Shown here: in pieces, positions 3,001 to 6,000 of the stretch
Layout of the letters: each line of letters starts with the position of its first letter
Numbering within the stretch: position 1 is the stretch's first letter
Source: Escherichia coli O127:H6 str. E2348/69
Lineage (GTDB): Bacteria > Pseudomonadota > Gammaproteobacteria > Enterobacterales > Enterobacteriaceae
Length of the DNA stretch: 64,000 bases
Strand: one strand, 5' to 3'
Assembly (NCBI RefSeq): GCF_000026545.1
Contig: NC_011601.1
Position numbers: made by a program

Positions 3001-6000
3001 AAGCATTAGTAATGGCTATTCTATATAGCAATATAAGAACTGTTACAAAAAAAGGGGGGGCAATTACAGGTAGTTATGGATGATGAGTGAAACAGATATT
3101 GGAGAACCGGGGAATGAATGATGTCTGAGTCTTATATATCAGAACTCCTTCGCTGTCGCTGGGGGCTCCTGTGCTTATGTCGTTTCCCCGATTCGGTTTT
3201 GAACGATTACCGAATGTTGAAGAATTATGCCAAAATATAGAAAGGATTTACTGCATGAATACCCAATATTTACAGTATGTTCGTGAGCAACTTATGGCAG
3301 CTACTGCTGACTTGAACGGAGCAACGAAAGGCCAGCTCGAAGCCTGGCAGGAGCATGCACAATTTGATACTGGTACATACAAACGAAAGAAGCCGCGCAT
3401 TCTGGATGTGGTAACTGGCAAGATGATTACGCTGGATAATACGCCGACTTCCGGTAAGCAGTCGTACGCAAAAGGTTCATCCATTGCTTTGGTCAGCCCG
3501 GTTGAATTCTCAACCTCTTCATGGCGCCGCGCGGTTTTGTCTCTCGATGAACATCAGAAAGCATGGTTGCTTTGGTGTTACAGCGAAAGCGTTCGATGGG
3601 GGCATCAGGCCACCATAACGCAATGGGCATGGAGCGAGTTTAAAGATTTGTTAAGTAACAGAAAAATTGCAGGTAAGACACTGGATCGCCTGAAGACGTT
3701 AATCTGGCTGGCTGCACAGGATGTGAAGAGCGAACTTGCAGGGCGTGAGGCCTATGAATACCAGACACTGGCATCATTGGTGGGAGTGACAACAAAAAAC
3801 TGGTCCGAGACATTTACTGAACGCTGGGTTGCAATGAAGCACATTTTTCTACAGCTTGATAGTGATGCTTTATTGCTTGTGACGAGAACACGTTCAAAAC
3901 AAAAGGCAGCATTTTTACAGCAAAATATTGCAAAACTGGATTAAAAGCCATATACTTCATGCAAATTTGGTATGTTGTAAAAAATGTATAAACCCGCTGC
4001 CGAGTGGTTTTTTTTTATGCCCTGAGTTGTACTTGTACGGTAAACATGCTGGCTGCTATGTAATAGAGTTTTTTTAGCCTGTAACCTCTTGACGGCATTG
4101 AATTGCTTTTGTTATGAGTTGTAAGCCAATGTTATCATCTTGTATTGGGGTGGTTATGAAGGATGGTGCGCTGCTCAGGAGTTCTTCACTTTTTATTGCC
4201 TACATGGGATGCCTTGGATGGGGGAGTGCTTATTTCTATGGATGGGGTACTTCTTTTTACTACGGCTTCCCATGGTGGATTGTAGGTGCAGGTGTTGATG
4301 ATGTTGCCAGAAGTTTATTTTTTGCAGTTATCGTCATTGCTATATTTCTTATCGGTTGGGGTATTGGTGTTGTATTCTTTTTCGCAGTGAAAAGAAAACA
4401 TTCTATGCAAGAGCTAAATGTATTTCGCCTTTATTTTGCTGTGGAATTATTGTTTGTGCCGGCAATTATTGAGTTTTCTATATTGAGACAGAAGATTCAG
4501 GTACCTCTTTTGCTACTGTCAGCAGCGATTGCGCTGGCGGTTACAATTTCGATAAGATCTTATGGGCGATTTTTATCGGTATCATGCTTCTATGATAAGC
4601 CATTTATAAAAAAACATTTTTTTGAGATTGTGATGATTGCTTTTGTGGCATATTTTTGGCTTTTTTCATTTCTGACAGGATATTACAAACCACAGTTTAA
4701 GAAAGAATATGAAATGATTAATTATAATGATGGTTGGTATTATGTTCTTGCTCGTTATGATAATTGTCTGGTTTTGTCTACTTCTTTCAATGCAGGTAGT
4801 AAAAGGTTTGTCATTTATCAATCAGCACAAGATAAGAATCTTCAGGTTGATATTGTAAGGACCAGAATTTAATTGGCTGCATAAATAATATTTTAAGTTG
4901 CAAGTTGGCTATTCGTAGGAATAGAACCTTAGGCATGCTGAATGCGTTTTCTGAACATTGTTTTATAAACTGTGTCTGCTTGCTGTTGTGATCCTGCTTT
5001 TAGTGATGGTGATGATGGATTTCACCAGCAGGATAATGTTGGTACTGACTGATGGCGCTCTGGTCTGCGGCATTGTGGTATTGCTGTGGCCGATGATGAA
5101 AGAACAGAATGAATAATTCTTGACTTTTTTGTTTACTGTTTATTAAAAAATCAACCGCATGGTGAATCCTCCTTGGAGGGGCTAAATGATCGAGTTTTAA
5201 GGGCACGTAGCGAGTTCTGTTTGATCATTGCAGAACTTAGCGGGAGGCGCCATGCGTACATCACTAGTGTTATTCCTTTTATCATTTTCCTTGTGAGTTC
5301 TGGCTGCGCATTGCGCAGCCTTTTTTTTATGACCTGCCACTGGCAGATGGTCATCCTGTGATTTGATTCCGCTTCCGGCTTTTTAACTCTGTTCCTCTAC
5401 ACGGGAGAAATTCGATGTCGATTAAACATTACGATGTTGTCAGGGCGGCGTCGCCGTCAGACCTTGCGGAAAAGCTGACACACAAACTGAAAGAGGGCTG
5501 GCAGCCATACGGCGGACCGGTTGCCATTACGCCGTACACACTGATGCAGGCGGTGGCTATTGAAGGAGAGCCACAGGTCGGCCCTTCATCTGAGCCGGAT
5601 TGGTACTACGTCATCGTACTGGCCGGGCAATCCAATGCCATGGCTTACGGTGAAGGGCTTCCGCTGCCGGATTCATACGATGCTCCGGATCCGCGCATTA
5701 AACAGCTGGCGCGCCGCAGTACAGTGACGCCGGGCGGGGCTGCCTGCAGATATAACGATATTATTCCGGCTGACCACTGTCTGCATGATGTGCAGGATAT
5801 GAGTACGCTGAATCATCCGAGGGCTGACCTGAGCAAAGGGCAGTACGGCTGTGTCGGCCAGGGTTTACATATTGCCAAAAAACTGCTCCCGTATATCCCG
5901 AATAACGCGGGGATCCTGCTGGTACCATGCTGTCGTGGTGGTTCGGCATTTACCCAGGGCGCGGAGGGGACATTCAGCGAGTCCACGGGGGCCAGTCAGG

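Follow-up and report, generated by a model that had tools for sequence, protein, structure and literature searches.

Five prophage-encoded small RNAs (sRNAs) of enteropathogenic Escherichia coli (EPEC) E2348/69 have been described through the ligation and sequencing of interacting RNAs (RIL-seq) combined with northern blots (Pearl Mizrahi 2021, PMC8550237). One of these, PasD2, is a 172-nucleotide (nt) RNA encoded at NC_011601 741157-741328, between E2348C_0687 and E2348C_0688, and its homologue in enterohemorrhagic E. coli (EHEC) is EcOnc13 (PMC8550237). Both Hfq-dependent accumulation and Hfq-mediated target chimeras have been published for PasD2 of E2348/69, and there are published data of this kind on the homologue in Sakai as well. 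The genes lpxR and Q are reported near (within 10 kb of) >98% of the PasD loci. In phage 2B8, pasD lies immediately upstream of an esterase gene (Zhu, Shabalina & Storz, bioRxiv 2026). Here, these described elements are compared with the DNA between a membrane-protein moron and a nanS-p-type sialate esterase gene in a 64,000-nt stretch of the E2348/69 contig NC_011601.1 (hereafter the window, to which positions refer unless otherwise stated). A preliminary description of this DNA had singled out a small hydrophobic open reading frame (ORF) followed by a strong terminator. Both the frame and the intrinsic terminator are genuine and occupy a prophage cargo position; the ~170 nt between them are not a spacer but the published Hfq-dependent sRNA PasD2. 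The interval very probably consists of two adjacent, already described prophage cargo elements, a tciB-like gene and pasD2 (Table 1), and the locus as such is already known, namely, the published pasD2 preceded by a tciB-like ORF of the DUF3927 family.

Identity of pasD2 and its closest relatives

The published pasD2 coordinates, minus 736,000, fall on window positions 5157-5328. The same constant offset places six consecutive E2348/69 features, E2348C_0685 to E2348C_0689 plus pasD2 (Q, the membrane protein, E2348C_0687, pasD2, the esterase, and the holin), on the corresponding window ORFs, and the analyzed DNA is probably the E2348/69 prophage PP2 together with its flank. The 3' ends of the sRNA published from RIL-seq, 741328/741329, correspond to 5328/5329. 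The published PasD northern probe matches at 5289-5312 in 23 of its 24 bases, the sole mismatch being the one stated for PasD2, and the seed and terminator segment UGUGAGUUCUGGCUGCGCAUUGCGCA is identical to published PasD. From the predicted +1 to the end of the U8 tail, the RNA is 172 nt long, and its length and terminator are those of PasD. The gene order is that of PasD loci as well, with lpxR and Q nearby, the esterase directly downstream, and PasA on the other side of the esterase.

Compared with PasD1 and PasD2 of EPEC E2348/69 (PMC8550237; Zhu, Shabalina & Storz 2026 preprint), the window RNA has the same position, the same length, and the same seed, UGUGAG, and it shares the PasD2-type terminator loop CAUUGCGCA with published PasD2. 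There is no substantive difference from PasD2, only two bases within a 21-nt stretch of a machine-read figure that is considered below. The segment at 4873-5414 has a 100% identical counterpart in phage 434 (OL657226) and is present at at least 95% identity in ~680 of 5,426 complete E. coli genomes, usually EHEC or EPEC; the identity of the region to phage 2B8 is 98.2%. EcOnc13, which is located in prophage Sp3 of EHEC strain Sakai (Tree 2014, PMC4104026), is embedded in ~98% identical DNA at the same "moron insertion site" downstream of PR'. The Hfq crosslink peak of EcOnc13, at 901332-901382 in Sakai, where the RNA runs at ~187 nt in northern blots (PMC4104026), maps to window positions 5263-5312, that is, to the seed together with the terminator's 5' half. 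Sp3 differs from the window in that the esterase is cut to its first codons and the holin comes next, as in the PasD1-type arrangement. The Sakai and 2B8 variant replaces a U-A pair of the terminator with U-G, and the stem is kept.

The RNA also resembles STnc100, a Salmonella and E. coli prophage sRNA. The Rfam model of STnc100 (RF02076) matches over its full length (1-206) at 5127-5331, with 41.4 bits and an E value of 2.7e-6. The likeness extends to the 5' domain, with its GCAUGGUGAAUCC...GGAGGGGC hairpin and closing helix, to the promoter architecture, and to the position within the prophage. Unlike canonical STnc100, however, the window RNA lacks the CACCCGGCAC hairpin of the 5' domain and carries a different seed and terminator module. 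The fold of PasD2 (minimum free energy, -58 kcal/mol; z = -3.07) starts with the 5' domain, followed by a largely unpaired, U-rich stretch that includes the seed, itself unpaired in the centroid structure, and then by the terminator. RNAalifold analysis of a family alignment of 18 sequences predicted 33 pairs, 14 of which show double-sided changes, mostly in the internal hairpin and the terminator; aligned with 17 family members, the window PasD2 retains the closing helix and the CCUCC/GGAGG hairpin.

Two further observations concern the family as a whole. Across STnc100 and PasD RNAs, the ~100-nt 5' domain is nearly invariant, while members have exchanged their seed and terminator modules; being much better conserved than the seed, the 5' domain may have a function of its own. 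In addition, several phages (IMG/VR loci L005-L124) carry two tandem copies, ~270 or 468 nt apart, for example, at 6883 and 7350 in L012 and at 8627 and 8900 in L027.

The main value of this identification is a correction, in that an abundant and experimentally validated sRNA is left unlabeled by automated annotation. The only RefSeq entry across pasD2 is a pseudo "hypothetical protein," and in the phage 434 record, a 62-amino-acid (aa) "membrane protein" takes this place. The gene escaped labeling because its Rfam score is just under the threshold and because a reader of the sequence alone is drawn to the adjacent small ORF. In EPEC, PasD2 ranks among the most abundant partners of Hfq, and it pairs with the virulence mRNAs perC, eaeA, cesF, and tir; correct labeling is therefore useful.

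Table 1 Features of the pasD2 locus and of the surrounding prophage region (window coordinates)
Feature	Position	Strand	Description
pasD2 sRNA gene	5157-5328	+	172 nt; Hfq-binding, base-pairing sRNA; EHEC homologue EcOnc13; STnc100 structural family
Putative sigma-70 promoter of pasD2	5120-5149	+	-35 TTGACT 5120-5125; 18-nt spacer; -10 TAAAAA 5144-5149
Structured 5' domain of PasD2	5157-5255	+	99 nt; closed by GCAUGGUG / (C)GCCAUGC helix; portion in common with STnc100
PasD2 seed region CCUUGUGAGU	5289-5298	+	Published seed UGUGAG = 5292-5297; just 5' of terminator
pasD2 intrinsic terminator	5302-5328	+	8-bp GC-rich stem, ATT loop, U8 tail
tciB-like small membrane-protein ORF	4958-5116	+	52 aa; TTG start, TAA stop; DUF3927 family
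Candidate PasD2 pairing site ACUCACAAGG	2607-2616	-	Inside lpxR coding sequence
lpxR	1820-2779	-	
Q82-like antiterminator Q	3255-3944		
pR'-tR' unit	3928-4016	+	Promoter-like TTGCAA-17-TATACT 3928-3956; terminator 3994-4016; directly after Q
Membrane protein of unknown function	4156-4872		238/252 aa
nanS-p-type sialate esterase	5415-7265		
Holin	7713-7919		
Endolysin	After holin		

Transcription start and termination of pasD2

The proposed pasD2 promoter begins 4 nt past the tciB stop codon and places the +1 at ~5157 (G5157), which is the published 5' end. Its conservation was examined in PasD family members that were gathered from viral contigs by the conserved 5' motif. The hairpin was required as well, which removed about a dozen unrelated coding sequences in which only this 16-mer occurs. 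The -35 TTGnCT and (TGn)TAAAA boxes are found at a constant distance from the RNA 5' end across 31 different upstream sequences, and the spacers are variable. The small ORF is upstream in only 18 of the 71 family members, and for that reason, an obligatory module of tciB and the sRNA was rejected.

These results bear on the possibility that PasD2 is a processed, Hfq-stabilized 3' untranslated region (UTR) of the mRNA of the membrane protein and tciB, that is, a type II 3'-UTR-derived sRNA. Such an origin would accord with an RNA start only 40 nt past the tciB stop, with the one terminator common to both, and with the automatic classification in the table of Pearl Mizrahi et al., where PasD2 is bracketed with its upstream gene in a 3'-UTR-like manner (PMC8550237). 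It is nevertheless improbable given that the promoter boxes keep a fixed distance from the 5' end, that 53 of the 71 family members have no tciB upstream, and that this same RNA is also produced where the downstream context differs (Sakai Sp3 and PasD1). Furthermore, in EPEC transcriptome sequencing, PasD2 reads (11,017) exceed those of the ORF, E2348C_0687 (baseMean, 36.7), ~300-fold. The conservation of the promoter and this read excess favor an independent pasD2 promoter over pure 3'-UTR processing, and pasD2 would accordingly appear to be transcribed in the lysogen from its own promoter.

Several points weigh against the assignment of the interval to an independently transcribed pasD2, in addition to the bracketing just mentioned. 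The -10 box, TAAAAA, is imperfect, with no T at position 6, and a simple promoter scanner made no call. The STnc100 score is below the gathering score of 47, and there was no match at the gathering threshold. A 21-nt PasD2 stretch in the machine-read Fig. S5 differs from the window at two positions (UAUUUCCUUU versus UAUUCCUUUU in the window), so that either the window carries a near-identical relative of the printed PasD2 or the text contains an error; PasD2 was identified here from coordinates, the probe, and close relatives. Finally, according to both papers, the function of PasD has not been elucidated, with no regulatory outcome for any PasD target.

At the 3' end, the hairpin and T8 run noticed in the preliminary description are present, but the stem has 8 bp and a 3-nt loop instead of the 9 bp that had been counted (GGCTGCGC-ATT-GCGCAGCC at 5302-5320, then T8 at 5321-5328; hairpin energy, -15.9 kcal/mol); counting an A-T pair as the ninth would shrink the loop to 1 nt. 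A terminator pattern scan of 3800-5500 found 2 candidates versus 1.2 expected in shuffled sequences, which alone is not above chance. The element is neither a terminator of the moron nor tR' but belongs to pasD2, whose 3' end is at 5328. Read counts drop across it from 11,017 for pasD2 to 102 for the downstream nanS-p and therefore indicate an efficient stop in the lysogen. The terminator would also keep lysogenic transcription out of nanS-p and the lysis genes. Once the prophage is induced, Q-modified polymerase from pR' should, by analogy with other lambdoid phages, read through the PasD2 terminator. In this respect, PasD2 is comparable to the lambda PR'-tR' 6S RNA and StxS, which are likewise short late-region RNAs that end at an intrinsic terminator to be read through by Q-modified polymerase. 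Unlike them, PasD2 probably has its own promoter, and it lies ~1.2 kb downstream of the pR'-tR' unit of the window.

The tciB-like gene and the case for a small peptide

The preliminary description placed a 37-codon ORF at 5007-5120. The peptide, MVMMDFTS...KEQNE, does exist, but it is encoded from the ATG at 5006-5008 to the TAA at 5114-5116, amounts to 36 codons plus the stop, and is the 3' two-thirds of a 52-aa gene, the frame being open back to the TTG at 4958. This ORF is named "DUF3927 family protein" or "TciB" in RefSeq and in the phage 434 record, is annotated alike in phage 2B8, and is E2348C_0687 in EPEC E2348/69. Its size alone is not unusual, as the first 12 kb of the window contain 124 ORFs that reach 30 aa or more. 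The 52-aa form matches Pfam DUF3927 (PF13064) over residues 7-50 with 53 bits, against a cut-off of 25, and it is because of the E value of this match, 3.4e-14, that the ORF was counted as real. PHROG 1470, "TciB-like," matches with 63 bits, and a protein search with the small ORF yielded 74 homologues with identities down to 46%. Judged from these matches, the ORF is a true member of a real, uncharacterized protein family. Instead of the single transmembrane segment initially attributed to the peptide, the 52-aa protein has two hydrophobic segments; all the homologues retain the N-terminal one, upstream of the ATG at 5006, and the N-terminal 16 residues are kept. The DFTSRI motif is invariant across the TciB-like homologues. 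TciB of phages P1 and D6 belongs to the same family and has the same length, the same two hydrophobic segments, and the DFTSRI motif.

The expression signals of the window allele are different. The tciB gene of phages D6 and Evi and of IMG/VR loci follows and overlaps the TerB-like tciA and starts with GTG, and these other lineages have GGAGAA-N7-GTG at the tciB start, within the 3' end of tciA. Upstream of tciB, the window lineage has unrelated sequence, tciA is missing, and the start is a TTG with no Shine-Dalgarno (SD) sequence. A mosaic junction is located at the tciB start codon (4873-4960), where the preceding membrane-protein gene is a different one, separated from tciB by an unrelated 85-nt spacer. 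In this lineage, tciA would have been replaced by the unrelated 238/252-aa membrane protein, with the junction at the start codon leaving the TTG without an SD sequence. Thus, the reading frame is conserved across related phages, as the preliminary description had suggested checking, whereas the translation signals, that is, the SD sequence and coupling to tciA, are absent from this allele; the homology is unaffected. The window copy also shows more nonsynonymous change: pairwise ratios of nonsynonymous to synonymous substitution rates are 0.12-0.31 among the tciA-coupled copies and 0.5-0.58 between the window allele and those copies, all rough figures from only 44 codons. Because of the TTG start without an SD sequence, tciB is probably translated poorly or not at all here, and it is probably weakly expressed.

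The peptide had been considered as a possible membrane-active toxin or regulator carried as cargo; the hairpin would then simply terminate the moron operon. The ORF does belong to a conserved family of small hydrophobic phage proteins, purifying selection acts on family members in other phages, and no other terminator was found between the membrane-protein gene, tciB, and 5302, so that moron transcripts would end there, too. However, DUF3927/TciB is uncharacterized by experiment: "Tci" derives from the adjacency to the TerB-like gene, and a literature search on DUF3927 and TciB returned only unrelated "TcIb" papers. PADLOC gave no match for the small ORF or for the membrane protein, no antisense or complementary RNA partner of the peptide gene was found, and the mRNA level in EPEC is very low. 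A toxin or regulator role of this allele also ignores the abundant sRNA that occupies 5157-5328 and, for these reasons, is rather unlikely.

A related proposal, a type I toxin-antitoxin-like pairing of the ORF with the RNA in which the sRNA represses a hydrophobic toxin, is largely refuted and very improbable. A small hydrophobic ORF adjoins an abundant sRNA, and prophages are rich in hok/sok-type loci, but here the RNA is on the same strand as the ORF, downstream and nonoverlapping, and is not antisense to it. Among duplexes of PasD with tciB, the best (-20.9 kcal/mol) does not surpass those of shuffled sequences (mean, -22.0; standard deviation, 3.3). Moreover, most of the family sRNAs have no tciB upstream; conversely, tciB of phage D6 lies behind tciA, and the BLAST similarity there stops short of the sRNA region. 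Nor is tciB among the PasD2 RIL-seq partners listed.

Coding capacity has also been attributed to the pasD2 region itself. A 62-aa ORF at 5173-5361 (+) is annotated, with a ribosome-binding site, as a "putative membrane protein" in OL657226, and for the EDL933 orthologue, "STnc100_1," a RIBOseq study gives a ribosome coverage of 2.16. However, this ORF has no Pfam match, extends through the terminator, is not called by RefSeq, and loses its frame to a 1-nt indel in the Sakai Sp3 copy, which is 98% identical; the annotation is probably spurious, and a real product is highly unlikely. Within PasD2, at 5176-5201 (+), GGAGGGG is followed after 4 nt by ATG ATC GAG TTT TAA, a 4-codon mini-ORF, the ATG of which is absent from canonical STnc100 copies.

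The weakest proposal, that the interval is the untranslated pR'-tR' leader of the late operon, has in its favor the location between Q and the lysis genes but is refuted by position and carries next to no probability, because the real promoter and terminator lie 1.1 kb upstream at 3928-4016, ahead of the membrane-protein moron, with the 238/252-aa gene in between.

Candidate targets of PasD2 and the prophage neighborhood

PasD2 would act as a trans-acting, base-pairing sRNA on many mRNAs with the published PasD target motif, CUCACA(GG), which is complementary to the seed; these would include virulence mRNAs and probably that of the neighboring lpxR. In RIL-seq, PasD2 chimeras were reported with perC (601), spr (405), eaeA (287), and lpxR (71), the last with an odds ratio of 3.0 and p = 2e-8, and other partners are cesF, aceE, coaE, and uspA. 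The lpxR gene, which encodes a lipid A 3'-O-deacylase, contains ACUCACAAGG, a perfect 10-nt complement of PasD2 5289-5298 (-15.8 kcal/mol), and the RIL-seq site for E2348C_0684 is located exactly at 2598-2625 (-), inside lpxR. Elsewhere in the window, this 10-mer is found only on the antisense strand of PasD itself, with 0.12 occurrences expected by chance. The candidate site is kept in 7 of 7 lpxR copies of the fetched loci, which are near-identical copies and so carry little weight. Longer-range duplexes between the PasD 3' region and lpxR (-25.7) were no better than those of shuffled sequences (mean, -24.3) and were discarded as evidence. On this sequence match and the chimeras, lpxR is a candidate for regulation by PasD2.

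The site in lpxR lies 2.5 kb from PasD2. A prophage-internal circuit, in which cargo sRNAs including PasD2 regulate neighboring cargo genes (lpxR and the membrane-protein moron), can be suggested tentatively, as a possibility that is more doubtful than probable. If it exists, the prophage tunes outer membrane lipid A remodeling posttranscriptionally through its own sRNA; apart from this possible link between PasD2 and lpxR, the locus offers no new biology. The published PasA site in E2348C_0686 was found exactly at 4288-4318 (+), inside the membrane-protein gene.

The PasA northern probe matches exactly at 7424-7448 (+), which places the PasA sRNA between nanS-p and the holin, on the minus strand. 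At 7415-7499 (-), PasA is convergent with the late operon, and its terminator, AGCCAGCAC...GTGCTGGCT, has a U run behind it. At ~7264-7330, there is a second hairpin, PasC-like, which agrees with the minor PasA form of 236 nt that has been reported. The PasC probe had no match in the window, and no convergent partner of the AsxR/AgvB type was found in the window even at E ≤ 1. No transfer RNAs were found in positions 1-12000. In the pR'-tR' unit, the terminator, which the pattern scan picked up and which is annotated in the phage 434 record, is a short hairpin with nine T behind it; the unit should give rise to a short (~50-nt) terminated transcript comparable to the lambda 6S RNA or StxS. Far from pasD2, a molybdenum cofactor (Moco) riboswitch at 46484-46628 (+) scores 103 bits and clears the gathering score by a wide margin; it probably represents the leader of the host moaA and would mark chromosomal sequence beyond the prophage.

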